A DNA stretch of 64,000 bases from a virus (IMGVR_UViG_3300028048_000113:24561-88560); one strand, 5' to 3'; shown: positions 7,516 to 54,237, numbered from the stretch's first letter. A program made the numbers and translations. Notes: generated by a model not told the origin, from the letters alone.

Positions 7516-7597
7516 GTGAAAGGCTATTTAATTATATATGTAATGTTTAGTGTTTTTTATTATGTTTATTAAATTAGAAAGGAATATATTTTAAATT

Positions 7598-18554: not shown

Positions 18555-19532
18555 ATGACTGATCAAGATTTGGTCAAGAAAATCTCCAAGATAGTTATTG
18601 GAGCATTAGCAGGTATAGTAGCAATCATACTTGTATGTAATTGCTTCTATAAAGTAGATGAGCAACATAATGCTGTACTTACTCAGTTTGGTACAGTACT
18701 TAAGGTTGACACAGCTGGTTTTTACTTTAAAGCACCTTGGCAGGTTGCAAGAAAAGTAGATATGACCACTCATGGTACACCTATTGGTTATTCAATTGAG
18801 AATGGTCAAAATATTCCAAATACAGATGATGGTATAATGATTACAGAAGATTACAACTTCTTAAACATTGACTTCTATATGGAATATGCAGTAGTTGATC
18901 CAGTAGCTTATTTGTATAATACAGAAAATCCTGAACTTGTTTTGAGAAACATTGCACAAGCAAATATCAGAACAGTTGTTTCAAATTATACAGTTGATGA
19001 AGCTATGACAACTGCAAAGGGACAGATTCAGGCAGATATTAAGCAAGCCATTATGGATGAGCTTGATAAGAATAATATTGGTCTTAAGATTATCAATATT
19101 ACAATTCAGGACTCAGAACCACCTACAGATACAATTAAGGCTGCATTCCAGTCAGTAGAAAATGCTAAGCAGGGTGCAGACACAGCAATGAATAAGGCTA
19201 AGGAATATCAGAATAGCCAGCTTCCTGCAGCACAGGCTGAAGCAGATAATATTATTCAGCAGGCTGAGGCTGATAAACAGGCAAGAATTGCAGAGGCTCA
19301 AGGTCAGGTAGAAAGATTTAATAAAATCTATGAGGAATATAAGTTATTCCCTACTGTAACAAAAGCAAGATTATTCTATGAAAGAATGGAAAATGTACTT
19401 CCTGGTTGTAAGATTATTATTACAGATGGTACTACATCCACAGTATATCCTGTAGATTCTTTTACAAAGAATACTCCACCTTATAAGCCAGTTGAAACAA
19501 CAACTACCACAACTGATGGAGGTAATGGCTAA
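18555..19532 (+). CDS. hflK: FtsH protease modulator HflK (SPFH/band 7)
   Basis: TM helix, AVLTQFG, ITEDYN, IQDSEPP, AFQSV, ARLFYERMENVL. Confidence 0.85.
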   Translation: MTDQDLVKKISKIVIGALAGIVAIILVCNCFYKVDEQHNAVLTQFGTVLKVDTAGFYFKAPWQVARKVDMTTHGTPIGYSIENGQNIPNTDDGIMITEDYNFLNIDFYMEYAVVDPVAYLYNTENPELVLRNIAQANIRTVVSNYTVDEAMTTAKGQIQADIKQAIMDELDKNNIGLKIINITIQDSEPPTDTIKAAFQSVENAKQGADTAMNKAKEYQNSQLPAAQAEADNIIQQAEADKQARIAEAQGQVERFNKIYEEYKLFPTVTKARLFYERMENVLPGCKIIITDGTTSTVYPVDSFTKNTPPYKPVETTTTTTDGGNG

Positions 19533-19533
19533 T

Positions 19534-20415
19534 ATGAGAAAGAATAAAATTTTAATTGGTGTATTTGCAGGTGTGGCAGTACTTATTGGATTGATTGTAT
19601 TCTTTGCATCAGTCTATACAGTACATACAAAGGAATCTGCAATTGTAGTTAGACTTGGTAAGGCACAAGCAACAGTTACAGAAACTGGAATGCATGCACA
19701 TGCTCCATTCATTGAATCTACAGTAAAGGTTTATATGGGTGAGAACTTGTATGATATGCCTAAGTCAGATGTAATTACTTCAGACAAGAAATCAATGATT
19801 GCTGATAATTATGTTATTTGGGAAGTAACAGATGCTCTCAAATATTACCAAACACTTGGTGGTGTTAAGAATAGAGCTGAGGAAAGAGTTGAGGCTGCAG
19901 TATACAATGCAACCAAGAATACAATTTCTTCAATGACTCAGGAAGAAATTATTGCTGCAAGAGGTATGACTCTTACAAATGCAATTACATCAGCATCTAA
20001 CTCAGATATTGCACAGTATGGTATTAATATTAAGATTGCTGAAATTAAGGCACTTGACCTTCCTGATAACAACAAGGAAGCTGTCTATAACAGAATGATC
20101 TCTGAGAGACAGAATATTGCAGCTGGTTACACAGCTCAGGGTAATAAGGATGCTCAGATTGTCATTAATGATACTGACAAGCAAGCTTCTATTATTAGGG
20201 CTGATGCTGAGGCAAAAGCAGCAATTATTAGAGCTGAAGGTGAAGCAGAGTACATGAAGATCCTTTCAGCAGCATATAATGATCCTGACAAGGCAGCATT
20301 CTATAACTATCTTAGAGGATTAGATGCACTTGAAGCTCTTGCAAAAGCAGACTCCACAATTATCCTTGATAAGGACTCTGATTATGCAAAGATCCTTTAT
20401 GGTTATTACACATAA
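19534..20415 (+). CDS. hflC: FtsH protease modulator HflC (SPFH/band 7)
   Basis: TM helix, IVVRLGK, ITSDKKSM, VYNRMISER, AEAKA, FYNYLRGLDA. Confidence 0.85.
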   Translation: MRKNKILIGVFAGVAVLIGLIVFFASVYTVHTKESAIVVRLGKAQATVTETGMHAHAPFIESTVKVYMGENLYDMPKSDVITSDKKSMIADNYVIWEVTDALKYYQTLGGVKNRAEERVEAAVYNATKNTISSMTQEEIIAARGMTLTNAITSASNSDIAQYGINIKIAEIKALDLPDNNKEAVYNRMISERQNIAAGYTAQGNKDAQIVINDTDKQASIIRADAEAKAAIIRAEGEAEYMKILSAAYNDPDKAAFYNYLRGLDALEALAKADSTIILDKDSDYAKILYGYYT

Positions 20416-20425
20416 TTAAATAAAG

Positions 20426-20462
20426 AGGAGTAGATCTTTTAGGAGGTCTACTCCTTTATTTT
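20426..20462 (+). terminator. Intrinsic terminator
   Basis: AGGAGTAGA/TCTACTCCT stem followed by T-rich tail. Confidence 0.65.
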
Positions 20463-20567
20463 GTGTGTGAAAGGCTATTTAATTATTATATCGTTTATAG
20501 TAATTGGTTTACTTTTTAACAATGTTAAATATAATAAATTTATATATATTTTAAAGGAGGTACTGCT

Positions 20568-21146
20568 ATGAAGCGTACTGAAAATGATTTCGAGAAGATT
20601 AAGATTACGAAAGCCTCCACTAATAAAGTTGCTTGCAACCTTTATTACGACTCATTTGGAATTGAAAAGATCAAAATTCAAAACTTTGACTATGCATCAA
20701 AGCAAAGCATAGACAGTTATATTGATTTTGAAGACGTTATTAGAATTGCAGCTGACTGTATGTCAGGCAAGATTATTAAGGACATTGAAAAGGCTCAGGC
20801 AGAAAACAAGCAGTACAGCCTTGGATATAAGGGTTCAAAGTCCTCCTCTATTTATGATGGAAAGCCTGAATCAAGACAGATTACATTTGGTTTGTCTGGT
20901 GGTAAGGTTTACATCAATATGACAAGATGTGAAGGTGTAGTTGACCCTGAAAATGGAACCATTAAGCCTAATGCTACTAGAGATAAGTCAAAGGATCTCA
21001 AGCTCTCAGTTGGTGTAGATGTGGATAAGTTTAGAGCAATGTTCTTGTATGCAGATGCTTGGATTAAGGCATATCTTTCTAGAGAAGTACCTCTCCTTTA
21101 TGATGAGGTAGACCAGAAGAGAAAGGAAAATTCTAAGACAAACTAA
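20568..21146 (+). CDS. Hypothetical protein, first gene of the RNAP operon
   Basis: 192 aa, RBS AAGGAGG, behind tandem class B and class A promoter motifs. Confidence 0.6.
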   Translation: MKRTENDFEKIKITKASTNKVACNLYYDSFGIEKIKIQNFDYASKQSIDSYIDFEDVIRIAADCMSGKIIKDIEKAQAENKQYSLGYKGSKSSSIYDGKPESRQITFGLSGGKVYINMTRCEGVVDPENGTIKPNATRDKSKDLKLSVGVDVDKFRAMFLYADAWIKAYLSREVPLLYDEVDQKRKENSKTN

Positions 21147-21167
21147 TCCAAATTTGGAGGTACCAAA

Positions 21168-23429
21168 ATGACAATTCCTGAATTATTTGAGAAAGAATTG
21201 AAGTTTTGGATTGAAGCAAATGAAAAGTTCCTGGGTGTCACTCCTATCGATGACACCTGGGACTATGCTGATATTCAAGCTTCAATTGACGAATCATGTA
21301 AGAAGTTCTGGAACGTTGAAAAACCTTGTAAGTTAGCAACTAACTTAAACAAAGGACTTCTTAATAAAGACGCTAGTCTCCAGGTAAAAAATTCATATAT
21401 GCTTAAGTTAAACTTCTATAACATGTGTATAGATGTTTTTGGCGATTATGGACCTGAATATGGACTCAAAAAGATCTGCGCAATACCTACTCCTTGCAAT
21501 GATCTTTGCTGGATTATCAATAGAACACATTACGTCACAAGAGTAGCTGCAACTAAAGATATTTATGGTTGCGTAAGTAAGGAAAGTTACAACCTCATTA
21601 AGGGAGAGGGTTGGAATTATACTATTGATACTGATACTTTTGATTGTGTTGTTACAAAAGATGAATATAAGTTCAATCCTACATTGGATGAAATCTTCGA
21701 TAATCACCTTTCAAGACGTTCAAAGTATTTGTTAGAAGCAGTTCTTGGTGAACCTGTTACAAAGGAAAACTTCAAGGCAGGTTTAAGAAAGCTTCCTACT
21801 TTCGACAAATCTTCTATTTTTAATTATAAATTTACGCGTATGGAATATTTTGAGGATGTTGTACTCAATTCTAAGAAGTATGCACAGCCTACAAAAGATA
21901 TTCTTCTTGGCGTTAATACAATCATTTCTTCAAAGACAAGACAGTGGACAAGTACTAAGGAGCATATTGATGGTTGTTTAGTACGTTCAGAGTCTAAGAT
22001 CTTTGCACTTGAAAACTTTAGAACATGTGCAAACTTCTTCAATATTGAAAGAAAAGATAACCCTAATATTAATGCTGCAGCTGCAAGCAGTGTACACTCT
22101 AAGTTTACCTATAATGATGCTAATGGTTTCTTTGATTCATTCAAGACCGTCACATCAAAATCAGCTGGTAGACAGAGATTATTGCTTGATAATGTAGTTA
22201 CAAAACATGGTCTTCTTTGGATTGTTGATGAAGATGGCACTATGCATAATATGTTTGAATATTTGGATATGCCTCAGGATGAGAGACTTTCTTGTTTGTC
22301 AAAGGCTCCTTTCTGCAATAACGATAAGCCTAAGAGAATCATGATGAATGCTAAGATGACTTCACAGGCAGTTCCTCTTGCTGAAGAAATTGATGAACTT
22401 ACTCATAGAATTACTGCAAGGGTTGGATTTACTGATATTGAAGGTTATACAGCAGCTGACTCAATCATTATTTCAGAGTCATTTGCAAAGAGACTTAGAA
22501 CATACGATCAGGAAATTCTCTACTTAGATAAGAATTCAAACCTTTATAAGGCTCTTACAGAAACTGAACCTGTAGTATTTGATCTCACATTACTTAAGGC
22601 GGTTTTCCCTAGAAAGAATGATGCAATTCTTCTTTCATTTGAGAATGTCAAGATTGATCACATTGATCACGTTGATGACTATAGAGCAAGAGTATTTATT
22701 ACTTGGGAAATTCCTTTCAGACTTGGCGATAAGATTACAAATCTTCATGGTGCTAAGGGTACAGTTGGTTTAATCTTACCTGATGATAAGATGCCTAGAC
22801 TTACCAAGAAAGTTGGTAATATGAAGGCTGGTCCTTTGGAAATAATTATTTCAGGTTATTCAGCTATGAGACGTGGATCTCTTGGTCAGATCTTTGAGGC
22901 ATGGTCTCTTGCTACTGGAAATACCGATGTTGACTTTGCTGCAGATGCTATTGCAAAACATGGCAAAGCAATGGAAACATATAGTAAGAATTCAATAGTT
23001 GAATATAATGGTGAAACACAAGTCATTCCTGTAGGTATTAACTACATTATGAGATTGTATCACCATGCATCAACCAAAGTTTCTTGTTCCTCTGCTGATT
23101 TTGCATATAAGAGAACATTAAGATTTGGTGAGATGGAAAAACTTAATCTTGTAGCTAATGATTGTCCTAATATCCTTAAGGAACTTGGTATTAGATCAGT
23201 TACTAAGTATATTGGTTCTCATAAGCTTATTAACCAGATTGAAGAGACAAGAGAGCTTCCTAAGAATGCTCATATGTCACTCCAGTTTGTAGAAATTCTT
23301 AAATCAATGGGATATAAGTTAACTGTAAGTAAGCTTTCAGATAATTATAGTGGAACAGATGAGAAAGATGATGATAACTTGAATGCTATCATCAAGAAGG
23401 AGGTCAAGTCAAATGAAGATGACAATTGA
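21168..23429 (+). CDS. rpoB: Multisubunit RNA polymerase beta-like subunit (minimal)
   Basis: KRIMMNAKMTSQAVP, GYTAADSIIISE, GDKITNLHGAKGTV, MP, RRGSLGQIFE, GINYIMRLYH, RFGEME correspond in order to the conserved RpoB blocks. Confidence 0.88.
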   Translation: MTIPELFEKELKFWIEANEKFLGVTPIDDTWDYADIQASIDESCKKFWNVEKPCKLATNLNKGLLNKDASLQVKNSYMLKLNFYNMCIDVFGDYGPEYGLKKICAIPTPCNDLCWIINRTHYVTRVAATKDIYGCVSKESYNLIKGEGWNYTIDTDTFDCVVTKDEYKFNPTLDEIFDNHLSRRSKYLLEAVLGEPVTKENFKAGLRKLPTFDKSSIFNYKFTRMEYFEDVVLNSKKYAQPTKDILLGVNTIISSKTRQWTSTKEHIDGCLVRSESKIFALENFRTCANFFNIERKDNPNINAAAASSVHSKFTYNDANGFFDSFKTVTSKSAGRQRLLLDNVVTKHGLLWIVDEDGTMHNMFEYLDMPQDERLSCLSKAPFCNNDKPKRIMMNAKMTSQAVPLAEEIDELTHRITARVGFTDIEGYTAADSIIISESFAKRLRTYDQEILYLDKNSNLYKALTETEPVVFDLTLLKAVFPRKNDAILLSFENVKIDHIDHVDDYRARVFITWEIPFRLGDKITNLHGAKGTVGLILPDDKMPRLTKKVGNMKAGPLEIIISGYSAMRRGSLGQIFEAWSLATGNTDVDFAADAIAKHGKAMETYSKNSIVEYNGETQVIPVGINYIMRLYHHASTKVSCSSADFAYKRTLRFGEMEKLNLVANDCPNILKELGIRSVTKYIGSHKLINQIEETRELPKNAHMSLQFVEILKSMGYKLTVSKLSDNYSGTDEKDDDNLNAIIKKEVKSNEDDN

Positions 23430-24639
23430 GCCTATTAACATTATTGATGATCCTGCAAATCAGGTTACGTCAGATAAGATCTTTCCTCCTAGAAAGATCA
23501 AGGATAAAGATGGTAACTATCTTTTCAATGATGAAGGTATCTTCTCAGAAAAAATTTTCGGTAAGTTTGGTCACTGTAGATGTGGTAAGTTAAGAAAGCC
23601 TGGCTACTGTGAAGAATGTGGATGCAGAGTTCTCAATAAGAGAAAGATGCCTGACTTCTTTATTAAGTTTAGTTTTGACCTTCCTAATAGAGTTATTAAC
23701 TACGGAAAGTTCTCAAACAAGAAGCTTTTAGAGGATCTTCTCTACTATAGAGGATTCATGTATGAAGGAAAGTACATTGAATTTGATCTTAAGAATGATA
23801 TGTCAGTGTATGAACAGGATAAGATCCTTTTTGGTAAGGAAGCAATCCTTTCAATAGGAGTACCTGAGGAATGGTATAATGGTGCAGTTCATAGACTTAT
23901 TTCTATTCCTCATACCTCATTCAGAAAGATTACTTTCCAGAATGATAACTATTTCATTGGTGACCTCAATAACCTTTATATTGATATGATCCGTCTTAAT
24001 AATAAGTATGATAAGCTTAAGAAGAATTCAAAGCTTAACATTCTTAATGAACTCAATATCAGATTTACAATCTGCAATGATCTCACTGTTCTTTATGAAC
24101 AGCTCTTCCAGATCCTTGCTAGAAATCATAGAAATGTTATTGATAATGAGCTTAAGGGTCAGCCTGAAACAGGTATGATTAGAGCAGTTATGACAAATAA
24201 CTTCAGTCTTGATGAGGACACAATTCTTATTGGTAAGTATTTTATTGAGACACTCTATCCTAAATTCTTTAGAGAATATATGATAGACGGTGAACTTGAT
24301 ATTAAGGCAATTAACAAGAAACTTAAAGATGAAAAGTATTTAGTACTCTTTAATAGACAGCCTACCATTGGTGCTAAGTCAATTATTGCAATGCACCCTG
24401 TATTCTCTGAATTAGATACAGAACAGTTTGTTATTCAGGCAAATCCTATTGTATATGATGGACTTGCTGCAGACGTTGATGGTGACTCATTGAATGTAAT
24501 TGCTCTCTATTCTAAGGAAGCTTGTGAAGAAGCTGAAAAGCTCTTACCTAGCAAGAATTATATTGAGGGTTCAAATGGTTCTATCAGAAATGGTATACTT
24601 GATGAGTTTAAGTATGTAGAAACATTATTAGGAGAATAA
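23413..24639 (+). CDS. rpoC: RNA polymerase beta-prime N-terminal half (catalytic)
   Basis: GIFSEKIFG + CRCG..CEECG zinc finger, LFNRQPT, AADVDGD (NADFDGD equivalent). Confidence 0.88.
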   Translation: MKMTIEPINIIDDPANQVTSDKIFPPRKIKDKDGNYLFNDEGIFSEKIFGKFGHCRCGKLRKPGYCEECGCRVLNKRKMPDFFIKFSFDLPNRVINYGKFSNKKLLEDLLYYRGFMYEGKYIEFDLKNDMSVYEQDKILFGKEAILSIGVPEEWYNGAVHRLISIPHTSFRKITFQNDNYFIGDLNNLYIDMIRLNNKYDKLKKNSKLNILNELNIRFTICNDLTVLYEQLFQILARNHRNVIDNELKGQPETGMIRAVMTNNFSLDEDTILIGKYFIETLYPKFFREYMIDGELDIKAINKKLKDEKYLVLFNRQPTIGAKSIIAMHPVFSELDTEQFVIQANPIVYDGLAADVDGDSLNVIALYSKEACEEAEKLLPSKNYIEGSNGSIRNGILDEFKYVETLLGE

Positions 24640-24643
24640 TACT

Positions 24644-25099
24644 ATGTCAGAGGTAACAAAAAAGAAGCCAGCAACAAAATCTACTGGCAAGAAAAAAGTA
24701 GATGACAAAAAGTTGTCTTATATCTTTTTTGGTATTCTTGTTGTAGCAATTATTGGTTTCTCAATATTGTTGTTATTACCTAAGTCTCCTAAGTATGTAA
24801 AGAACTTTGGTGATGATATTGTAACAACAATTGAAATCAAGGAAAAAGATGAAACAATTAGAATGCTTGTAAAGATTAAAGATAATGATGTTATTGAACA
24901 AAAAGGAACTTTAACTTTTATAGCAGATGGAACATCTCAAGATGCTGAAGGAAAAGAAGTAGCATATAAAATTTATGAAGCTTCTTTTGAACCTTTAGAT
25001 TCAGAAGAAGAGCCTGAAGTAGTTCAAATTAAGGTATATGAGAAATCATTAATCTTAGCATATGACTCAGGTGAAATTATTGAATATGAGAGGAAATAA
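24644..25099 (+). CDS. Single-pass membrane protein
   Basis: Basic N-terminus and one TM helix (IFFGILVVAIIGFSILLLL); lies between the two beta-prime halves. Confidence 0.6.
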   Translation: MSEVTKKKPATKSTGKKKVDDKKLSYIFFGILVVAIIGFSILLLLPKSPKYVKNFGDDIVTTIEIKEKDETIRMLVKIKDNDVIEQKGTLTFIADGTSQDAEGKEVAYKIYEASFEPLDSEEEPEVVQIKVYEKSLILAYDSGEIIEYERK

Positions 25100-25104
25100 G
25101 ATAT

Positions 25105-26079
25105 ATGGCAACACTTAAGAACAGAAAGAAATATGTAGAACACTATCATGATCTTGGTGAAGCAATGTTCACAAACTGTACAATTCCTACAGTTGGTGAC
25201 TTTGCAAAAGCCTATAGCAAAAAAGATGCTGATTCAATAAAGAAGATTGAAACTATTACTGAGTTTACTGGTAATAAGAAGGATATTGATGAATCAATTG
25301 AAAGAAGAAACTCAATTTATTCAGATGCTGAATCTAAGAAGTTCATGAATTCAGTTATTGCGGCAAATATCACAGATATTACAGAATCTGGTTGGTTCTA
25401 TAAGAAACTTATCAGTTCTTGTGATGATATGACAATTGTTGCAGATGACTGTGGTTCAGTTGGTGAAGAGTATGCTTGTCCTATCAGTGAAAAAGTATTC
25501 AATTATAAGATCAAGAATAGATATGTAGTTGAATGCAGAGACTATATTGAGGATATTAAAAAGCTTCCTAGAAATGGTAAAATCCATGTAAGAACATTCC
25601 TCACTTGTAAAAAAGGACCTAGACATTTCTGTGCTAAATGTGCAGGATTGTTTAGAAGATCCTATGATACAACATTCATTCCTAAGAATATTGGTATCTA
25701 TTCAACCCTTATGATTACAGAGCACGCTACACAGGCTTCATTAGACTCAATGAATAAAGGTGTTACAGAAAAGTTGAATGTACTTTTGGAAAAGAGAATT
25801 CCTAAGCCTGCTGATCTTAATGAGGCAAAGGAAAAAATTAGAGAAATCATTGATGAAATCGGTGATGTTGGTGTTGACTCAAGATTCTATGAAGTAGCTC
25901 TTCTTTCTAGATATAGAAATGGTGAGTTTGTATCACTTCAAAATTCATTTATCAAACAGGAAGATGTTTTTGGTGCATTTGTATATTCAAATACCAAGAA
26001 ACTTTTTGATAAGATGATTGAAACTGGTGAGTTCAATGCTAACTCAATGAAGACTAAGATAGCCTTTGATGCATACTAA
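25105..26079 (+). CDS. rpoC: RNA polymerase beta-prime C-terminal half (bridge helix, trigger loop)
   Basis: ESGWFYKKL (SGYLTRRL), DDCG, VRTFLTC..FCAKCAG zinc site, IGIYSTLMITEHATQ (VGIIAAQSIGEPGTQ). Confidence 0.82.
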   Translation: MATLKNRKKYVEHYHDLGEAMFTNCTIPTVGDFAKAYSKKDADSIKKIETITEFTGNKKDIDESIERRNSIYSDAESKKFMNSVIAANITDITESGWFYKKLISSCDDMTIVADDCGSVGEEYACPISEKVFNYKIKNRYVVECRDYIEDIKKLPRNGKIHVRTFLTCKKGPRHFCAKCAGLFRRSYDTTFIPKNIGIYSTLMITEHATQASLDSMNKGVTEKLNVLLEKRIPKPADLNEAKEKIREIIDEIGDVGVDSRFYEVALLSRYRNGEFVSLQNSFIKQEDVFGAFVYSNTKKLFDKMIETGEFNANSMKTKIAFDAY

Positions 26080-26129: not shown

Positions 26130-26197
26130 AAAAAAGTATTTACTTTAAAGCGCTATTGTGATATAATATTTTTAGAAAAGATTTAAGGAGATTTTTG

Positions 26198-27242: not shown

Positions 27243-27539
27243 ATGAGAAAGCTTACTAAAAAAGGTAGCATTGATGTTCAGACTTTTATGTTATTATGTT
27301 TCATGTTAATTATTATTTCATGTCTAATAATGATATTTGTAGTTTCTGGATCAAAAAATCATTGGAATGATGGACGCTGTCCTAAATGTAATACAGAATG
27401 GAGATATGTTCAGGCAGTTGGTCATCAATATACTACAGGATATATTTATGTTTGTGATACTTGTGGTGATAAGATAGAAACAAATCATGAACCTGATTGG
27501 AAAACAGTAAAGACAGGTGAATTAAATGAGAGCAATTAA
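27243..27539 (+). CDS. Membrane-anchored zinc-ribbon protein (paralog of 1756..2145)
   Basis: TM helix then CPKC...QAVGH...YVCDTCG. Confidence 0.55.
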   Translation: MRKLTKKGSIDVQTFMLLCFMLIIISCLIMIFVVSGSKNHWNDGRCPKCNTEWRYVQAVGHQYTTGYIYVCDTCGDKIETNHEPDWKTVKTGELNESN

Positions 27540-28764
27540 AGACATAACTGGACAGAAATTTGGTAAGCTTACAGCACTTTATCCACTAGAAAAAAGAAAT
27601 TCTAGTGGTAATGCTATTTGGCACTGCAAATGTGAATGTGGTGGAACTAGAGATGCTATAGCTAGCTATTTAATAAATGGTTCTACCACAGGATGTAAAG
27701 ATTGTCAAACAGCAAGAGGAAAATTTAAAGATATAACTGGTCAACAGTTTAATTATCTAACTGTACTTTACAAAACAAACAAAAAAGACAATAGAAACAG
27801 TAGAATTTGGCACTGTAGATGTGTCTGTGGTAAAGAAGTTGATATTCCTGGAGATAGACTCAGAAGTGGTCAAGCTAAATCTTGTGGATGTAAAAATCTT
27901 AGAAAAAGCTGTAGTATGGGAAGTACTCATGCTATTAAGAATTCTACTGATTTGACAGGTCAGAAATTTGGTAAGTTAACAGTAATGAGTAGATCAGCTA
28001 ATAAACATAGAAAGGGTAGATACTGGACTTGTAAGTGTGAGTGTGGTAAAATAAAAGTATATGATACCAATACTCTTATACATAAGACTTCTTGTGGTTG
28101 TGATAGAAAGAGAAAGTCTTATAAGATGAGAACTTTTGATTCAGTTTCAGTTGGTGATAGATTTGGAAAACTCACAACTGTCTATTATTTACCTAGTAAA
28201 CCGGGTCATTGGATCTGTAAATGTGACTGTGGTAATTTAGCTATAATTAGAACTAATGATCTTAAAAAGGGTGTTACTCAGAGCTGTGGTTGTAGAAAAA
28301 TAAAAAATCCTGATAAATTACCTTATTATAAAAAATTGCTTGATGCCAAAACAGATTTAACTGGAATGAGATTTGGTAAACTCACAGTTGTTAAAGATAC
28401 TGGTAAATCAAATGGAAAGGGTAAACTATGGCTTTGCAAGTGTGATTGTGGTAACACTAAAGAAGTAACAGATTCAGCTCTTAGATTTAATATGACTAAA
28501 ACCTGTGGTTGTACAAAATATAATGGAAAAGACTTAACAGGTCAAAGATTTGGCAGACTCACAGTACTTGAGAAAACAAACAAGAGATGTCATGGTTATA
28601 TTGTTTGGAAGTGTAAGTGTGATTGTGGAAACATAGTAGAAATACCTATGCATAATCTTTCATACAATAATTCAACTAGATCTTGTGGATGTCTATTAAA
28701 AGAAACTAAAGCCACATGGGGACAAAGAGTAAAAGATAATTATAAAGAGTGGAAAAAGTTATGA
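27526..28764 (+). CDS. Cys-rich repeat protein (6 copies of DLTGQxFGxLT..WxCxCxCG..SCGC)
   Basis: Repeats counted in the translation; this unit usually accompanies phage HNH/AP2 proteins. Confidence 0.75.
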   Translation: MRAIKDITGQKFGKLTALYPLEKRNSSGNAIWHCKCECGGTRDAIASYLINGSTTGCKDCQTARGKFKDITGQQFNYLTVLYKTNKKDNRNSRIWHCRCVCGKEVDIPGDRLRSGQAKSCGCKNLRKSCSMGSTHAIKNSTDLTGQKFGKLTVMSRSANKHRKGRYWTCKCECGKIKVYDTNTLIHKTSCGCDRKRKSYKMRTFDSVSVGDRFGKLTTVYYLPSKPGHWICKCDCGNLAIIRTNDLKKGVTQSCGCRKIKNPDKLPYYKKLLDAKTDLTGMRFGKLTVVKDTGKSNGKGKLWLCKCDCGNTKEVTDSALRFNMTKTCGCTKYNGKDLTGQRFGRLTVLEKTNKRCHGYIVWKCKCDCGNIVEIPMHNLSYNNSTRSCGCLLKETKATWGQRVKDNYKEWKKL

Positions 28765-29735
28765 GATTTATAGATTTAACTGGTAAACAGTTTGGAAGAC
28801 TCACTGCTTTATATACTAATAGAAGAAATGGAAAAGGCAATATTATTTGGCATTGTAAATGCCAATGCGGAAATGAAACTGATGTTTTAGGAATTAACCT
28901 CAGAAATGGAGCTACAAGATCTTGTGGTTGTTTATTTAAAGAAACTCATAAGGTTATTAAAAAACCAAATGATTTAACAAATCAAAAATTTGGTAAATTA
29001 ACTGCACTTGAAATGGTGGGTAAGAATTCTATTGGTGCTATTAAGTGGCGCTGTAGATGTGATTGTGGAAATTATAGAGACGTAGTAAATAGTTTATTGC
29101 TTAATGGTAAAGTTACAGCTTGCCTTGAATGTTCTAAATTAGGTCGTCAAAAAGACATAACTGGGCAGCAATTTGGTAATCTAACTGCATTATATTCTCT
29201 TAATAAAACTGATGAGCATCATTCTATAATATGGCATTGTAAATGTATTTGTGGTAAAGAATTAGATATATCTTTAATGAAATTAAAAAATGGTTCTGTA
29301 TTTTCTTGTGGATGCTCAAAGAAACCTAAAAATCCTACACCATTGACAGATAAACGTGTTCATAATTTAATTGGTCAGAGATTTGGTAAGTTAACTGTAA
29401 TTGCTGATACAGGTAAGTCAAATCGTTGGGGTAAAATTTGGCTATGTCAATGTGACTGTGGTAATACTAAAGAAGTAGATAGTAATAAACTTCATATGAA
29501 AAGTGTTACATCTTGTGGTTGTGTAAGAAAAGATCTAACTGAATATAAAAGTAGACATTTAGAGGGCCAACAGTTTGGTCAATTAACTGTTCTTGAATAT
29601 GCTGGAAAAAACAAATATAGTCAATCCATTTGGAAATGTAAATGTAGTTGTGGCAATATTAGATATGCAGTTGGTAGTTATCTTGTAAGAGGAATGGTAA
29701 AATCTTGCGGTTGTTTAAGAAATAAAAACAAATAA
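28761..29735 (+). CDS. Cys-rich repeat protein (5 copies)
   Basis: Same repeat unit; no catalytic domain. Confidence 0.75.
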   Translation: MRFIDLTGKQFGRLTALYTNRRNGKGNIIWHCKCQCGNETDVLGINLRNGATRSCGCLFKETHKVIKKPNDLTNQKFGKLTALEMVGKNSIGAIKWRCRCDCGNYRDVVNSLLLNGKVTACLECSKLGRQKDITGQQFGNLTALYSLNKTDEHHSIIWHCKCICGKELDISLMKLKNGSVFSCGCSKKPKNPTPLTDKRVHNLIGQRFGKLTVIADTGKSNRWGKIWLCQCDCGNTKEVDSNKLHMKSVTSCGCVRKDLTEYKSRHLEGQQFGQLTVLEYAGKNKYSQSIWKCKCSCGNIRYAVGSYLVRGMVKSCGCLRNKNK

Positions 29736-29736
29736 C

Positions 29737-30636
29737 ATGAATAAAGAAAAATATTTTATAGATTTACAAGATATGAAATTTGGGCGGTTAACTGCCCTTT
29801 TTCCAGTAGAAGAGAAAGCTAAGAATGGTGAAACTCAATGGATGTGCCAATGTGAATGTGGCGGCACAAAAGTTGTAAAAGGCAGTCATCTTAGAGGTGG
29901 AAATACTCAATCTTGTGGATGTATTAGAAATAAGAAAATAGAAGGTCAGAAGTTTAACAAATTAACTGCTATCAAGTCAAGACGAAGAGATGATGGTAGA
30001 GTAGTTTGGTTATGTAAGTGTGACTGCGGAAATGAAATCGAAGTTCTTACTGCTGATCTTCTAAATGGTTTATATGTTTCTTGTGGTTGTACAGGAAGTA
30101 GAAGAACTAAATTTAGAACAGTTGAGTCATTTAATACAAAAGCAATCTCTAATTTTGTGGGTAAGAGATTTAATGAATTTGTTATTCTTGCTCCTACTCA
30201 TAAGAGATATTTTGAGGATGTGCTTTGGAAATGTAGATGTGACTGTGGTAAGATTTTCTTTGCACCCACAGCATTTATTTTGAATGGTAAAATAAAATCA
30301 TGTGGTCATTTACATGAAGCTTTCAATAAGAATTTTGGTAAAGACATAAGACGAAAATCGAATAGATATGTATTCAATAAGATAGGAATAGGTTTTACTA
30401 TCAAAGGTGAAAAGTTCTATTTTGATAAAGAGGACTATGACAAAATAAAAAACTATTGTTGGCGTTTTAATGAATATGGAACTCTTATTGCTCATGATCC
30501 TGAGTCATGGCCAGAAAAGAAATCAGTCATACCGGCATGGAGAGTTATATTTAATGAGAAAGATAAGTCAAAGAAAATAGTATATAAAAATAAGAATAAA
30601 TGGGATCTTAGAAAGAGGAATTTGGAGGTGATCTAA
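29737..30636 (+). CDS. Cys-rich repeat protein (3 copies) with degenerate HNH-like C-terminus
   Basis: C-terminus FYFDKEDYDKIKNYCW...IVYKNKNKWDLRKRNL resembles phage HNH DHINxNxLDNRxxNL but lacks the His. Confidence 0.65.
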   Translation: MNKEKYFIDLQDMKFGRLTALFPVEEKAKNGETQWMCQCECGGTKVVKGSHLRGGNTQSCGCIRNKKIEGQKFNKLTAIKSRRRDDGRVVWLCKCDCGNEIEVLTADLLNGLYVSCGCTGSRRTKFRTVESFNTKAISNFVGKRFNEFVILAPTHKRYFEDVLWKCRCDCGKIFFAPTAFILNGKIKSCGHLHEAFNKNFGKDIRRKSNRYVFNKIGIGFTIKGEKFYFDKEDYDKIKNYCWRFNEYGTLIAHDPESWPEKKSVIPAWRVIFNEKDKSKKIVYKNKNKWDLRKRNLEVI

Positions 30637-30992
30637 TGATACTCTATGGAGTAATACTCGTTACTTGCCTGATTATTGCCTTTTTTGATTATAAATATCA
30701 ATCAGTTCCATTAGCTACTTTGATTATTAATTATATTGCTATATGTTATCTCATTGGTAATCCCGGATTATATTTAGGAGTATTTATTATATTTTATGCT
30801 CTAGCAAAAGAACTTCCAATAGACCTTTTGTACGTCTCTTTAATAGTCTATTTAATAATAATAGGAAGCGTCTCTACAATACATATAGCAGTGACTTTAA
30901 TATTTAGTCTATTCTATATAGTATTTTCTAAAAAGAAGAAAATTAGCTTTTTGCTTCCATTAGAGGTTATATTAATGTCAGCTTTAATTTAA
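30636..30992 (+). CDS. Polytopic membrane protein, possibly A24 prepilin-peptidase-like
   Basis: IAFFDYKYQSVP, PIDLL and KKISFLLPL resemble A24 blocks. Confidence 0.4.
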   Translation: MILYGVILVTCLIIAFFDYKYQSVPLATLIINYIAICYLIGNPGLYLGVFIIFYALAKELPIDLLYVSLIVYLIIIGSVSTIHIAVTLIFSLFYIVFSKKKKISFLLPLEVILMSALI

Positions 30993-34445: not shown

Positions 34446-35468
34446 ATGAAAATTACTAATGCTGTAGAAAAAATTATCAATAAGGAAACCAAGGATAAGG
34501 AAATAGATCTGGATAAGTATTCAGAGATTATGGCTGATCTCACAGGTGATGAATATGTTGAACTTATCAACAAGCTTAGTGAGTTGGGTTATACAGTAAG
34601 TAGTAAGGAAGAGGAAGAGGATGAAGAGGCTGATGCCCTTATCAATAGTAATGACATTAAGTCAATTATCTCAAGATTCCCTCTTCTCACAAAGGAACAG
34701 GAACTTGACTTAGCTAATAAGAAGCTTGAGGGTGATTTGGATGCTAAAGAGCTTCTTATCAATTCAAATCTGAGATTGGTTGTCTCAATTGTAAAGAAGT
34801 ACCTCAATAGAGGTGTTGAATTCCCTGACCTGTTTAGTGCTGGCTGCACTGGACTTACAATGGCAGTTGATAAGTTTGACCCTTCCAAGGGCTACAAGCT
34901 CTCAACATTTGCCACATGGTGGATTAGACAGCAGATTACAAGTGAAATCTCAACTATGGGTAGAATGATTAGAATACCTGTAAATACTGCTCAGAAGGTA
35001 AATGAGGTTAAGAAGGCTAAGAGAGCCCTTGAAATTGATCTTAATAGAGAGCCTTCCCTTGAGGAAGTTGCAGAAAGACTTGGTATTACTGAGGAAAAGG
35101 TAATTGAACTCCTTAGTTATGATATTCAGCCTATCTCCTATGATCAGGCCATATCCAGTGACTCAGATGATACCCTTCTGGACTTCATAAGCACAGAATT
35201 GGTTGATGAGGATGAAACCTCAGACATTATTAAGGCCCTTGATGAGATTGAACTCAAGAAGGAAGTCAGAACCCTTATGAGAACTCTGACCCCTAGAGAG
35301 AAGCAGGTTATCCTTCTCAGAAAGGGATTTATCAATAATAAAGTTTATAAGCTCCAGGAAATTGGTGAAATCTTGGGTGTAACTAAGCAGATGGTTAAGT
35401 CCATTGAAGAAAAGGCCACCCATAAGATGAAGATTGAATCAGTTGTCATCCAGATGAGTGAAAACTAA
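34446..35468 (+). CDS. RpoD/SigA-like sigma-70 factor (phage-encoded)
   Basis: PLLTKEQE, NSNLRLVVSIVKKYLNRG, KFDPSKGYKLSTFATWWIRQ, RMIRIPV, REPSLEEVA, LTPREKQVI, region 4.2 HTH. Confidence 0.92.
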   Translation: MKITNAVEKIINKETKDKEIDLDKYSEIMADLTGDEYVELINKLSELGYTVSSKEEEEDEEADALINSNDIKSIISRFPLLTKEQELDLANKKLEGDLDAKELLINSNLRLVVSIVKKYLNRGVEFPDLFSAGCTGLTMAVDKFDPSKGYKLSTFATWWIRQQITSEISTMGRMIRIPVNTAQKVNEVKKAKRALEIDLNREPSLEEVAERLGITEEKVIELLSYDIQPISYDQAISSDSDDTLLDFISTELVDEDETSDIIKALDEIELKKEVRTLMRTLTPREKQVILLRKGFINNKVYKLQEIGEILGVTKQMVKSIEEKATHKMKIESVVIQMSEN

Positions 35469-44789: not shown

Positions 44790-46112
44790 ATGAACATTAT
44801 TTTAAGTGGTCCAGATGCATGCGGAAAGACAACTCTCGGTGAAAAACTTAAGGCAAAGTATAACATGCCTATTATTCATTCCACAGCAACTACAAGAAAT
44901 ACGTTAGAGTATCATTTGGATTTGATTGACTATCATGATAATACTATCTTTGATAGATTTTCAGTCGGTGAAATGATTTTTCCTAAGATTTATGGAAGAC
45001 CTGCAATGCTTACTGAGGAAGAGTTTTTTAAGACTCTTAGAAGAGTAGAAGACAATAATGACATGTATATTATCTTTACATGTTCAGATGTTGAAATTCT
45101 TAAGCAGAGATTGATTGAACGTGGTGAGGAAGATTACCTTGCTGAAATCGTACAGCAATGTGAGTTATACAATGAAGTAGCTATGAAGATGGCTAACTTC
45201 TTTGGTAATTATAAGAATTTTTATGCTATTGACATTGCAGAACCTCATGCATATGACAGACTTGATAAATGGATTGATGAACATTATGGAAAGATTACAC
45301 CTAATGTAGCATACAAGAAATTAGCAAATGACCTTTTGGATTATGGACATCCTATTCCTTCTAGTAACCCTCGTGGTACTACAAAGGAACTTACTGATTA
45401 TTCATTCACTATTGATGATTTGGATGTCAATGAATGCATTACACTTAAGTCAGGCGGTACAAATCTCACTTATGTAGCAGCAGAGATTCTTTGGTACTGG
45501 TCATCTAGAAATGATCTTGCTTTTATTAACAAGTTCTCATCTTTCTGGAATAAGGTAACTGATGATGGTGTAACTGCCAACTCAGCTTATGGTTATATTC
45601 TTCAGCAAAAGCATGGTTTTAACCAGATTGAGAAGATCATTGAATTGTTACAGAAGGATCCTTTTTCAAGAAGAGCAGTTCTTAACATCAATGTACCTAA
45701 TGAAAAGGTTATTGAGACTCATGATGAAATGTGTACAATTTGTTTAAACTATCAGATTAGAGATGGTGTTCTTGATTGTAACTGTGTAATGAGATCTAAT
45801 GACTTTAACTTTGGTCTTAGAAATGACATTGCATACTTCATCTATCTCCAGAAGTACATTGCAGATAGACTTGGAGTTGGTTATGGTAAGTACACACATT
45901 ATGCATTCTCAATGCATATGTATGACAGAGACTTTAAGTTCTGTAAGAAGGTTGCTTATGGTGACATGGAAACATCAGATGAAAGACTTGATGTAAGAAA
46001 GCTTATTGACAATAAGGATACTCTTATTGACTGGATTGATAATAAATTTACATCAAAGGAAGACTTTACTCAGATGCTTAAGGATATGAATATCATTTAT
46101 CCAGCAAAGTAA
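44790..46112 (+). CDS. Fusion: dNMP kinase + dCMP hydroxymethylase (thymidylate synthase fold)
   Basis: N-part GPDACGKTT and FDRF (NMP kinase). C-part DEMCT..QIRDG..MRSNDFNFGLRND has Asp at the pyrimidine-specificity position, as in T4 gp42. Confidence 0.8.
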   Translation: MNIILSGPDACGKTTLGEKLKAKYNMPIIHSTATTRNTLEYHLDLIDYHDNTIFDRFSVGEMIFPKIYGRPAMLTEEEFFKTLRRVEDNNDMYIIFTCSDVEILKQRLIERGEEDYLAEIVQQCELYNEVAMKMANFFGNYKNFYAIDIAEPHAYDRLDKWIDEHYGKITPNVAYKKLANDLLDYGHPIPSSNPRGTTKELTDYSFTIDDLDVNECITLKSGGTNLTYVAAEILWYWSSRNDLAFINKFSSFWNKVTDDGVTANSAYGYILQQKHGFNQIEKIIELLQKDPFSRRAVLNINVPNEKVIETHDEMCTICLNYQIRDGVLDCNCVMRSNDFNFGLRNDIAYFIYLQKYIADRLGVGYGKYTHYAFSMHMYDRDFKFCKKVAYGDMETSDERLDVRKLIDNKDTLIDWIDNKFTSKEDFTQMLKDMNIIYPAK

Positions 46113-52099: not shown

Positions 52100-53131
52100 A
52101 TGATTGATTCAAAGTATTATGATATTAAAGAAAAAATAGAAGAGTCAGATTTTTGGACAAATAAACTTTATAATATGGCTTATGAAAGAGTAAAGGATAG
52201 ACAATATCCTCTTGTTATTCCTTCATATAATAGACCAGATAATAAAATGACGAAATATATCTATGAACATACTATTGATGAGGAACCTTGGGATATTTAT
52301 GTAGTTGTTAGAGCTTCTCAGAAAGAAATATATGAGCAGGCAGAATATTTTAAGAAATGTAATGGTAAGATTAAACTTCTTCCTTTTCCTGATGAAACCA
52401 TTAATGATTTAGGTAAAGTTAGAGTAGAAACAATTAAATATTTTTCAGGTAAGAAAGATTGTATCTTCATGATTGATGATGATACACTTGATATAACATA
52501 TACAGTACCTTATACAAGAAAATCTGGTGCTCAGATTTCAATGTCAGTTACTGATAAATTTATTGGTCATAATACTAATTTTGCTAGAATTTTAGCAATG
52601 TGGCAGGTTGCTATGGAGGAAACTCTTAAAAAGCATGATAATGTTATTATTTCCTGTCCTATGATTGCTGGGTTTAGTTGGGCTCCTAATTTCTGTGATC
52701 CTGAAAATAGTTTAAAGATAATGAGTGGTGCTCAGGCTTGTTGTATGTGTATTAATATAAAAGCATGTAATAAGTATGACATTACTTTTAGAACTAATAA
52801 GGGTAATGGTCATGAAGATAAAGACTTTGTAATTAGAGCAATTCAAAAAGGCTGTATGACAGCTGAGTATAGATGGCTTGCTTATTATTCAGATGGTCTT
52901 GGTACTGATTTCTTAAATAGTGGGATAGCTGAAAGAATGGCTAAGCAACATGATGAAATGTATGCTAATTTTAAAGATGTTGATTATGTTAAGTTTATTA
53001 TTGATAGAAAAGGTCTTAAAAATGTAAGAGTCAATTGGAGTAGAGCAACTAAGTTTTATAATAACTTAACTGGTGAAAACATTAATAAGACAAATAATAA
53101 ATTTAACTTAGCGGAGATATTAGGACTATGA
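52100..53131 (+). CDS. GT-A glycosyltransferase, T-even glucosyl-hmC glucosyltransferase-like
   Basis: VIPSYNR, VVVR, IFMIDDDT (DxD), HEDKDF. Confidence 0.72.
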   Translation: MIDSKYYDIKEKIEESDFWTNKLYNMAYERVKDRQYPLVIPSYNRPDNKMTKYIYEHTIDEEPWDIYVVVRASQKEIYEQAEYFKKCNGKIKLLPFPDETINDLGKVRVETIKYFSGKKDCIFMIDDDTLDITYTVPYTRKSGAQISMSVTDKFIGHNTNFARILAMWQVAMEETLKKHDNVIISCPMIAGFSWAPNFCDPENSLKIMSGAQACCMCINIKACNKYDITFRTNKGNGHEDKDFVIRAIQKGCMTAEYRWLAYYSDGLGTDFLNSGIAERMAKQHDEMYANFKDVDYVKFIIDRKGLKNVRVNWSRATKFYNNLTGENINKTNNKFNLAEILGL

Positions 53132-54237
53132 AAGCAATAGGAATGCATATATTCTGTGGAAGTCAGACAATCGGACATTTACTTGAAGGTTGGAAGATAG
53201 ACACAGTACTTGAAATTTCAGAGGATATGCCTAATCAAAATGCATATCATTTCATTAAGAATTATCCTAAGATTCAGGTAAAAAAACCTTCTGAGTATGA
53301 GGATAATGAAGCATATCTTGACAAACTTAAATCAGAGAATTATGATCTTTTATATTCAAATCCTCCCTGTTCTGGTTTGTCTCAGATAAATAGAAACGCT
53401 AGTGCTGATTGTGCAATAAATGGTAATATCTATAAAGTAATCAACATGGTAAAGAGAATAGAGCCTAAGACATTCTTGATAGAAAATGCTCCTACTCTTA
53501 CTACAACTGGTTTGCCTATTCTTAAGGATCTAGTAAAACAGTTACCTAATTATTATGTAACAATAATCAATGACTATGCTAGAAATCATAATGTTCCTAT
53601 GAATAGACGTAGAACAATGGTTGTAGGATTCTGTAAAAATAATTTTACAAAGATGCCTCAGATACACCAACATGCAGTTGAGACTGATCTTAAGACAGTT
53701 CTTGCTGGAGTTGATTATACATACAATAAAGAATATATTAAGGAAACTGATAAAGATTTGTTTAAGTATTACAAGTATGTAAAGCAAGGCAATGATCTTT
53801 ATGATGCACTTGTTGACAATGATGTAATCATAAACAAAGCAGTTGAGAAGATTAAGTATAATAGAGAGCATAATCTCAGAAGCTGGAATAAGTCACCTTG
53901 GAGACCTGATAAATTAGCACCTTCAATGACCTCTCTTACTAGAATTATTCACCCCACAGAGGATAGAGATTTTTATATTAGAGAGTATGCAGCTCTTATG
54001 GGTTATCCAAATGACTTTGTTTTCTATACAGATGGTCAAACACCTATTGTGCAGTGTATAGCTCAAGGTGTTCCTGTTAATTTTATTAGATATATTTCTA
54101 GTGAAATTAAGAATTCTTTTAAGACAAAGGATTTTGTTGATTGTGAGGTTCTGTATATTAATCAGTGTAATCCTGATAGTATAAAGACTAAAGAATATAC
54201 AAGAGAGTCATTTGATGGAACTGAAAAGATTATATAA
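53128..54237 (+). CDS. Divergent C5 cytosine DNA methyltransferase-like protein
   Basis: Motif IV NPPCSG, motif VI IENAP, motif VIII PMNRRR, C-terminal REYAALMGYP..F and AQGVP; motif I degenerate (FCGSQ). Confidence 0.78.
   Translation: MKAIGMHIFCGSQTIGHLLEGWKIDTVLEISEDMPNQNAYHFIKNYPKIQVKKPSEYEDNEAYLDKLKSENYDLLYSNPPCSGLSQINRNASADCAINGNIYKVINMVKRIEPKTFLIENAPTLTTTGLPILKDLVKQLPNYYVTIINDYARNHNVPMNRRRTMVVGFCKNNFTKMPQIHQHAVETDLKTVLAGVDYTYNKEYIKETDKDLFKYYKYVKQGNDLYDALVDNDVIINKAVEKIKYNREHNLRSWNKSPWRPDKLAPSMTSLTRIIHPTEDRDFYIREYAALMGYPNDFVFYTDGQTPIVQCIAQGVPVNFIRYISSEIKNSFKTKDFVDCEVLYINQCNPDSIKTKEYTRESFDGTEKII

Follow-up and report, generated by a model that had tools for sequence, protein, structure and literature searches.

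Bacterial-type multisubunit RNA polymerase (RNAP) is usually taken to comprise at least about 3,000 residues (alpha2, beta, beta' and omega), with catalytic residues that are near-invariant. Outside cells, the enzymes of the jumbo phages AR9 and phiKZ function without alpha or omega (PMC13282480, PMC7598289), and according to reviews jumbo phages carry either an RNAP or a sigma factor, never both (PMC7824862, PMC13282480). Bacterial-like beta and beta' subunits have also been described in uncultured phages under the name mReC (Weinheimer and Aylward 2020; PMC7481178), a set that was restricted to subunits of at least 800 residues with the motif NADxDGD. Here we analyse an operon in a metagenomic stretch of 64,000 nucleotides (IMGVR_UViG_3300028048_000113:24561-88560; hereafter the window, whose first letter is position 1), which covers bases 24561-88560 of one record of 88,560 bp. 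We propose, with a probability of roughly 0.7, that the genes p192, beta, beta'N, p151 and beta'C encode a working, cut-down bacterial-type two-barrel RNAP core, composed of beta and a two-piece beta' with no alpha or omega of its own, and carried by a giant element.

The observations on which this proposal draws concern the structure of the genes, their homology, fold and conservation, the size of the family, its single copy per genome, the signals of the operon and its occurrence in RNA libraries. The core is real and probably active. Judged by sequence, it belongs to a large undescribed RNAP lineage that is closer to bacterial beta and beta' than to the AR9 and phiKZ enzymes, and we found no published description of this architecture in a literature coverage that leaves most subscription journals outside. 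The features of the locus are as follows.

20424..20457, plus strand: terminator-like hairpin and T run, 15-bp stem, ending the upstream SPFH/Band 7 unit
20467..20486, plus strand: 20-mer GTGAAAGGCTATTTAATTAT, one of three copies; candidate operator or second promoter class
20508..20535, plus strand: sigma-70/sigmaA-type promoter-like site TTTACT-N16-TATAAT, candidate promoter of the operon
20568..21146, plus strand: p192, first gene of the operon, predicted Whirly-fold protein of 192 residues
21168..23429, plus strand: gene of the beta-like subunit, 753 residues, unsplit
23413..24639, plus strand: beta'N gene; the longest open reading frame (ORF), from 23383, gives 418 residues, the likely start at 23413 gives 408
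24644..25099, plus strand: p151, 151 residues, between the two halves of beta'
25105..26079, plus strand: beta'C gene, 324 residues
26103..26130, plus strand: hairpin and short T run after the operon
26139-26167: next promoter-like site, 3' of the operon hairpin
34446..35468, plus strand: gene of a sigma-70-family factor, 340 residues, with Pfam regions 1.2, 2, 3 and 4; candidate specificity factor

The beta-like protein matches Pfam Rpb2_6 (3.7e-9), the motifs GDKITNLHGAKG and FGEME can be read in it directly, and it carries the second double-psi beta-barrel (GDK...HGAKG), in which the residues of the lysine pair and their neighbours, G520, D521, K522, H527, G528, A529, K530 and G531, are invariant in 19 sequences. 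Compared with the Protein Data Bank (PDB), a profile built on 19 sequences found Firmicutes beta at 1.7e-14, AR9 at 5.7e-10 and phiKZ at 1.1e-5, the match to Firmicutes beta running through three colinear stretches, namely the fork region, the GYxxED block, and the second barrel up to the C-terminal clamp region. The AlphaFold2 model of beta (predicted local distance difference test score, pLDDT, 79.9; predicted template modelling score, pTM, 0.79) retrieved bacterial and plastid beta with Foldseek at 1.9e-19, and a second aligner (VIA) placed it at a Z of about 20 to bacterial, plastid, archaeal and Pol II second-largest subunits over about 480-550 residues, with a root-mean-square deviation (rmsd) of 4.7-6.4. 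As the model aligns from its residue 1, which pairs with B. subtilis beta from residue 25 onward, to about residue 640-670, the modelled fold indicates that beta is whole at its N-terminus and unsplit, a single 753-residue chain reaching from the N-terminus to the clamp region, as the initial annotation had stated. The matched Firmicutes chains are of about 1190 residues; compared with B. subtilis beta, about 250 residues of the N-terminal lobes, about 100 between the stretches at 655 and 758, and about half of the flap are missing.

The N-terminal part of beta' matches Pfam Rpb1_2 (3.1e-9), and its profile found bacterial beta' and cyanobacterial gamma in the PDB at 2.3e-11, again in three colinear stretches. 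It carries, in this order, a Zn finger (Zn1: C65, C67, C76 and C79), the clamp-helix motif LNxLY...N, retained as LNxLYxxxxRxNxxY/L, and the catalytic block NRxPT...DxDGD, in which the Arg of NRAPT is kept in the family and the catalytic loop reads AADVDGD, with D364, D366, G367 and D368 invariant in nine sequences. Since ATG 23413 lies 9 nt after AAGGAGG and matches the N-termini of all relatives, it is most likely the start of beta'N. The C-terminal part has no Pfam match; a profile of seven beta'C sequences found 53 PDB chains, all of them bacterial beta' (best E 5.6e-4), and aligns to bacterial beta' 787-979 through the bridge helix, the second Zn site and the trigger loop. The four cysteines of Zn2 (C116, C168, C176 and C179) are invariant, the trigger loop is short and has no insertion, and the conserved C-terminal block of beta'C holds the invariant STLMITEHATQASLDSMNKG.

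Together the two parts of beta' amount to about 732-742 residues, compared with about 1200 in the matched Firmicutes chains, so that the figure of about 60% of bacterial size in the initial annotation holds for both large subunits, as do its ORF positions (20568-21146, 21168-23429, 23383-24639 and 25105-26079), the presence of all core motifs in order (AADVDGD, the beta lysine pair, both Zn sites, bridge helix, trigger loop) and a division of beta' between the catalytic loop and the bridge helix. The aspartate triad, the lysine pair of beta and both Zn sites are invariant in relatives down to 44% identity. The most divergent beta'N (locus L003) is without the entire N-terminal Zn-finger segment.

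The gene between the two halves, p151, which the initial annotation had not listed, is translationally coupled on both sides. Its product starts with a basic segment, has a single transmembrane helix and a small domain rich in beta structure, and evolves fast (29-51% identity where the RNAP core shows 63-81%). In the relative L013 its place is held by an unrelated 171-residue Cys-rich protein and a 480-residue ORF. We discarded p151 as the missing middle of beta' because of its transmembrane helix and because in unsplit relatives no more than about 20-40 residues connect the two halves. We likewise dismissed an intron or ribozyme at this place, as Rfam gave no match anywhere in the window and the genes on either side each have a ribosome-binding site and a start of their own.

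The beta family comprises at least 149 clusters at 90% identity, whose members are 44-84% identical, 700-830 residues long and found on contigs of up to 532 kb. The clusters are unnamed in any source and come from rumen and gut samples; one of them lies on an NCBI metagenome-assembled genome labelled "Bacilli bacterium". A scan of 185,579 prokaryote species, each represented by one genome, with the beta alignment gave no relative. The relatives of the beta gene in IMG/VR include five records of 250,568 to 467,383 bp, all CheckV-complete, and each of these five has one beta and one beta'N locus by Pfam and jumbo-phage PHROG models. In 11 independent loci the order p192, beta, beta'N, p151, beta'C, PD-(D/E)XK nuclease is kept.

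A search among longer proteins uncovered variants of this arrangement (P0274-P0276, P0279, P0280; P0277, P0278; L028, L029, L030). There are relatives with an unsplit beta' of 767-797 residues, whose N and C parts abut via a linker of about 20-40 residues, and relatives in which beta and beta'N are fused into 1091-1095 residues. Since such forms exist, gene fission and fusion are active in this lineage, and the split is not a character of the family as a whole. We placed these sequences in a beta' tree (25 rows, 749 columns, LG+C20+F+G4, rooted on ten bacterial beta' sequences), in which the family forms a single clade (100/100) set off by a long stem, with about 4.3 changes per site along the path to bacterial beta' and the root set arbitrarily on the stem. 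The split clade of the window has 100/100 support, L013, which is split by another insert, groups with the unsplit P0275 and P0274 (91/87, 84/95), and all split forms appear as one clade in 2% of bootstrap trees only; the backbone of this tree is not resolved, and its supported branches alone are compatible with a single origin of the split. Probably the unsplit beta' is the older form, and insertions of genes would have split it at the same linker on more than one occasion. We did not locate beta'C in the fusion lineage or in the lineages of L003 and L029, where a 266-residue gene of L003 and a 359-residue gene of L029 were considered for it and rejected, as they do not match the beta'C profile. 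L003 (12054-13283, 8125-9273) has an IS605 OrfB/TnpB-like gene 5' of p192, and a primase and a 912-residue SSSPR-51 protein follow its beta'N, where beta'C would be expected.

The operon genes are translationally coupled and have good ribosome-binding sites, and terminator-like hairpins flank the operon on both sides. Sites of the class TTTACT-N16-18-TATAAT occur ten times in the window compared with 0.27 expected, all on the plus strand, and the 20-mer GTGAAAGGCTATTTAATTAT has three matches compared with 0.08 expected, the other copies lying at 7516 (5' of recA) and 35613 (5' of gyrB); as repeats, then, the two promoter classes noted initially are real. As a conserved signal of the RNAP operon the 20-mer was abandoned, since it is not found 5' of the operon in any relative examined; one match to its core stands behind the sigma gene of the closest relative. 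In most relatives the homologous first gene is preceded by TTTACA/TTGACA-N17-TATAAT, and the sigma-less relative L013 has a perfect TTGACA-N17-TATAAT before the operon. These host-type promoters suggest that the host holoenzyme transcribes the operon.

The operon stretch was found in bovine, sheep and goat gut runs of 13 studies. Parts of it occur in four metatranscriptome runs from three studies, and one bovine metatranscriptome run spans every bin of the stretch at 99% identity or more. The RNA-library contigs (4 runs, 3 studies) start at 20558-20563 and none covers the intergenic 20297-20557, which hints, if weakly, at an RNA 5' end shortly 3' of the predicted promoter. In three of the four runs, a contig that starts at p192 and reaches about 450-530 nt into beta (window 20563-21700) is several-fold deeper than the contigs downstream; contig depth cannot rank genes, and the greater depth of p192 over beta says nothing on the rank of their expression. 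The step in depth within beta is possibly an internal 3' end or a processing site.

Neither alpha (PF01000) nor omega (PF01192) was found in any of the five complete relatives, while the controls were matched in 14 of 14 genomes, which bears out and extends the absence noted for the window. The sigma gene at 34446-35468 is real, with all four regions, and four of the five complete relatives have 2-4 sigma-70-family genes. In one complete relative a sigma-like frame with an in-frame TAG lies at G003 30168-30983 (L023), for which a broken copy, a split gene or recoding is possible.

In the scheme that we infer for assembly, activity, sigma use and target genes, the host holoenzyme would read the consensus sigmaA-type promoter 5' of the operon, the three core chains (beta, beta'N and beta'C) would assemble, and the new enzyme would transcribe genes of the element. 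Promoter specificity would most likely come from the element's own sigma-70-family factors, docked on the retained clamp-helix motif of beta'. In bacteria, sigma region 2 docks on this motif.

Several observations weigh against this proposal. The barrel motif of beta reads LHGAKG where bacteria show RHGNKG, and the first residue of the NADFDGD block, which we take to be E. coli N458, is A, G or Q in the family and N in bacteria. The trigger-loop block LDSMN, invariant in seven sequences, stands against bacterial MRTFH, with Leu-Asp...Asn at the positions of the bacterial Met-Arg...His, so that the usual Arg and His are gone. No alpha-like assembly platform was found. The fifth complete relative has the RNAP and no detected sigma gene, and in the closest complete relative (467 kb, its beta 83% identical to that of the window) the syntenic sigma homologue is 45% identical, compared with about 80% for the core; this lower conservation and the sigma-less relative weaken the sigma link. 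Finally, RNA-library contigs can contain DNA, and DNA carry-over is possible. As the altered residues are fixed within the family, their pattern argues for function rather than decay, and the catalytic properties of the enzyme may be altered by them.

A more specific version of the proposal, which we put forward as tentative and rather unlikely as a whole, is a sigma-dependent holoenzyme in which a core of about 1,500 residues without alpha or omega would be led by sigma-70 factors of the element, with the Whirly protein as an accessory subunit that holds single-stranded DNA (ssDNA) or nascent RNA. If true, it would be the first non-cellular multisubunit RNAP working as a sigma-dependent holoenzyme, and a transcription machine of bacterial type that is minimal by nature, its carrier being perhaps neither a classical phage nor a classical plasmid. 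The self-contained transcription system that the initial annotation had considered is unproven, one complete relative being sigma-less and the operon lying behind a consensus host-type promoter in most relatives.

It is conceivable, though we think it unlikely, that the enzyme is a hybrid, in which beta and the split beta' of the element assemble on host alpha2 (and omega) and use host sigmaA. The element would then replace the catalytic subunits only, for example escaping host regulation or inhibitors. The lack of an alpha or omega gene in all five complete relatives, the sigma-less relative and the abundance of host-type promoters on the coding strand of the window all fit a hybrid, as does the closest sequence match, which is to Firmicutes beta with its C-terminal region included. 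Yet beta is about 40% shorter than its bacterial counterpart, and as the lost parts include the roughly 100 residues at 655-758 and half of the flap, the surfaces for contact with alpha may be gone; moreover, the AR9 and phiKZ enzymes manage without alpha or omega (PMC13282480, PMC7598289).

The first gene of the operon, p192, bears on a further alternative. Its AlphaFold2 model (pLDDT 97.3) displays two beta4-alpha repeats, for which VIA gave a Z of 12.2 to StWhy2 (potato Why2; rmsd 4.0, 140 aligned), 11.6 to PBF-2, 9.9 to MRP1/2 and 7.0 to Pur-alpha, the next unrelated row standing at 6.6, and Foldseek a probability of 0.98-0.99 for PURA and Whirly with E of about 2e-3 and above. The lead for p192 in the protein atlas was a viral "Whirly" cluster. 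On this modelled structure p192 is a Whirly-fold protein of the type that binds ssDNA or RNA. It has the same two beta-beta-beta-beta-alpha repeats as the Whirly, PUR-alpha and MRP1-2 proteins, without sequence similarity to them and, unlike them, it is encoded in the RNAP operon of a giant element. Its family, with 349 representatives at E <= 1e-3, matches nothing in Pfam, PHROG or the PDB by sequence, and its clusters are mostly labelled Uroviricota. The gene is linked to beta in the clade of the window, L003, L013 and L028, and not in L029 and L030; two distant members (L016 5252-6085 and L017 6001-6609), situated on other large contigs, have sigma genes a few genes away. Members of the family may serve giant elements as transcription-linked binders of ssDNA or RNA. 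Other roles for p192 were rejected: a split-off N-terminus of beta, as the beta model aligns from residue 1 and the fold of p192 is that of Whirly; and the only single-stranded DNA-binding protein (SSB) of the element, as each complete relative has two OB-fold SSB genes. Nor is p192 recognisable as a part of the RNAP or similar to alpha.

With such a Whirly-fold binder at its side, the enzyme could be a specialised nucleic-acid polymerase and not a general transcriptase, for example a synthase of primers or small RNAs, or one with relaxed sugar selectivity on hypermodified DNA. We consider this improbable. The change and fixation of residues that bacteria use for contact with and selection of the nucleoside triphosphate would agree with it, and so would the co-transcription of p192 despite the two OB-fold SSBs and a neighbourhood of DnaB, primase, PD-(D/E)XK nuclease, gyrase, a thymidylate-synthase-family/kinase fusion and a glucosyltransferase-like gene. 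The full cleft that is kept, with Zn finger, clamp helices, bridge helix, trigger loop and a remnant of the flap, fits processive transcription instead, and sigma genes are linked in most relatives.

We now turn to the carrier of the proposed bacterial-type core. The 88,560-bp record has 31% G+C, nearly all genes on the plus strand, no N and no terminal repeat. Four of the five complete relatives have direct terminal repeats. Because the complete relatives span 250-467 kb, the record is a fragment of a giant element of the 250-470 kb class and not a compact genome, and the "compact viral lineage" of the initial annotation is not supported. Gene content was read in the scanned parts of the record, which hold replication and repair genes (RecA, DnaB, primase, gyrB/gyrA, a SNF2 helicase and a CCA-adding enzyme) as well as a PhoH/PIN protein, TelA, a VWA protein and a poly-N-acetylglucosamine (PNAG)-synthase-like glycosyltransferase, and no virion gene; the neighbourhood of the operon also holds the PD-(D/E)XK nuclease.

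The word "viral" is unproven as well. Among five hallmark models for major capsid, large terminase and tail sheath, PF05065, PF03237, PF17289 and PF04984 matched none of the five complete relatives, which is weak evidence against a tailed phage, as jumbo-phage virion proteins often escape such models. The model of the gp23-type capsid (PF07068), which is the type of the mReC capsids, was blank in all five and silent in the controls too, and so says nothing. ATPases of secretion or conjugation type are present: all five complete relatives (G001-G005) encode a TrwB-like ATPase and a T2SSE-family (TadA/VirB11-type) ATPase (about 1e-35; for example G003 258941-260507), which in three of the five adjoins a weak VirB4-like match. 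On the other side, IMG/VR classes the complete relatives as viral, and the window has phage-like PHROG matches, namely the thymidylate-synthase family/kinase fusion, a protein like a glucosyl-hydroxymethylcytosine (glucosyl-HMC) glucosyltransferase, and HNH repeats. Instead of a phage, the carrier may be a plasmid-like element. We propose that it is a giant extrachromosomal element of ruminant gut bacteria, probably Bacillota; the conclusions on the RNAP are independent of its phage or plasmid-like nature.

Directly 5' of the RNAP operon, at window 18555-20415, stand two tandem SPFH/Band 7 genes, one of which is kept in L007. Window 27526-30636 holds three tandem genes of repeated Zn-binding modules, and the first of them matches PHROG 374 (HNH endonuclease) in six stretches (E 3e-100). 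At 44790-46112 and 52100-54237 we find a fusion of deoxynucleoside monophosphate (dNMP) kinase with the thymidylate-synthase family, a beta-glucosyl-HMC-alpha-glucosyltransferase-like gene (PHROG 842, 2e-10) and a DNA methyltransferase-like gene, which together suggest modified cytosine DNA. Such DNA, if present, could motivate the element to carry its own polymerase.

Across hundreds of rumen and gut elements, selection has maintained a core of about half the usual size, and its natural split, unsplit and fused arrangements offer structural and synthetic biology an answer on the minimal needs of an RNAP. It would also break the rule that giant phages have either an RNAP or a sigma factor (PMC7824862, PMC13282480), and add an RNAP lineage that earlier metagenome surveys screened out by length and motif (PMC7481178).

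Of the described non-cellular enzymes, those of phiKZ and AR9 (PDB 7OGP, 7S00) share with the present one a giant non-cellular replicon, the lack of alpha and omega, and a beta' split after the catalytic barrel. That the present enzyme is merely a non-virion RNAP of this type with fused beta pieces is nevertheless very improbable. PHROG models of jumbo-phage RNAP beta subunits are its best PHROG matches (1.2e-13 and 2.5e-10), and the place of the beta' split and the jumbo size of the carrier are comparable, but these matches, like those by tblastn to GenBank phages, are short, stay within the barrel motifs and cover no more than 28% of the protein. The profiles score better to bacterial chains than to phiKZ and AR9, whose chains are absent among the listed matches of beta'N (best 60 of 88) and among those of beta'C, which are to bacterial chains only. 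In phiKZ and AR9 beta is divided into two or three polypeptides, and virion and non-virion sets exist; the present family has an undivided beta and a single set in each genome, and relatives with an unsplit beta' occur, differences that the initial annotation had in part anticipated. Sigma-70-family genes are present here, and Iyer et al. report none in RNAP-bearing jumbo phages. A gp68/gp226-like gene was not noticed, though no search aimed at gp68/gp226 was made.

Among all known enzymes the bacterial beta and beta' are the nearest, those of Firmicutes giving the best matches (PDB 6WVJ, 8I23, 8X6F and 7L7B), with the same two double-psi beta-barrels, colinear blocks, both Zn sites, the clamp-helix motif, the bridge helix and the trigger loop. 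The present core differs from the bacterial one in its size of about 60%, in having no alpha or omega gene and beta' in two genes, in its changed near-universal residues, and in its long separate branch and a family not found in cellular genomes. That the genes are decayed or recently captured host rpoB/rpoC pseudogenes, for which the reduced size alone would speak, can safely be dismissed, as their reading frames are unbroken and their starts coupled, at least 149 clusters of 44-84% identity share the catalytic residues without change, none of the 185,579 species genomes has a relative, and the long stem has 100/100 support. Another compact enzyme, a JGI protein of 1806 residues (P0294), has Rpb2 and Rpb1 domains in one chain (PF04565, PF00562, PF04560, PF00623 and PF04998); it is a beta-beta' fusion that is unrelated to this RNAP family at close range, and gp206 of Salmonella phage Arash (1525 residues, adjoining the portal gene) is a fused form similar to it.

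With mReC the family has in common its metagenomic, non-cellular origin, bacterial-like beta and beta' on a deep branch apart from cells, and samples that are partly host-associated. By the length and motif rules of that study, it falls outside the set in its beta of 753 residues, its beta' of 408 + 324 or 767-797 residues, and its AADVDGD loop.

The cyanobacterial and plastid rpoC1 (gamma) and rpoC2 provide the nearest parallel to the divided beta', and gamma is among the best matches of beta'N. The likeness drawn in the initial annotation stands for the interval, as in both cases the cut in beta' falls after the catalytic loop and before the bridge helix, and fails for the exact position, since the cut is not at the same spot: gamma extends about 125 residues beyond the catalytic block and beta'N about 50, and the bridge helix lies about 200 residues into rpoC2 and about 90 into beta'C. 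Unlike the cyanobacterial and plastid split, the one described here is lineage-specific, probably recent, and has a foreign gene in its gap.

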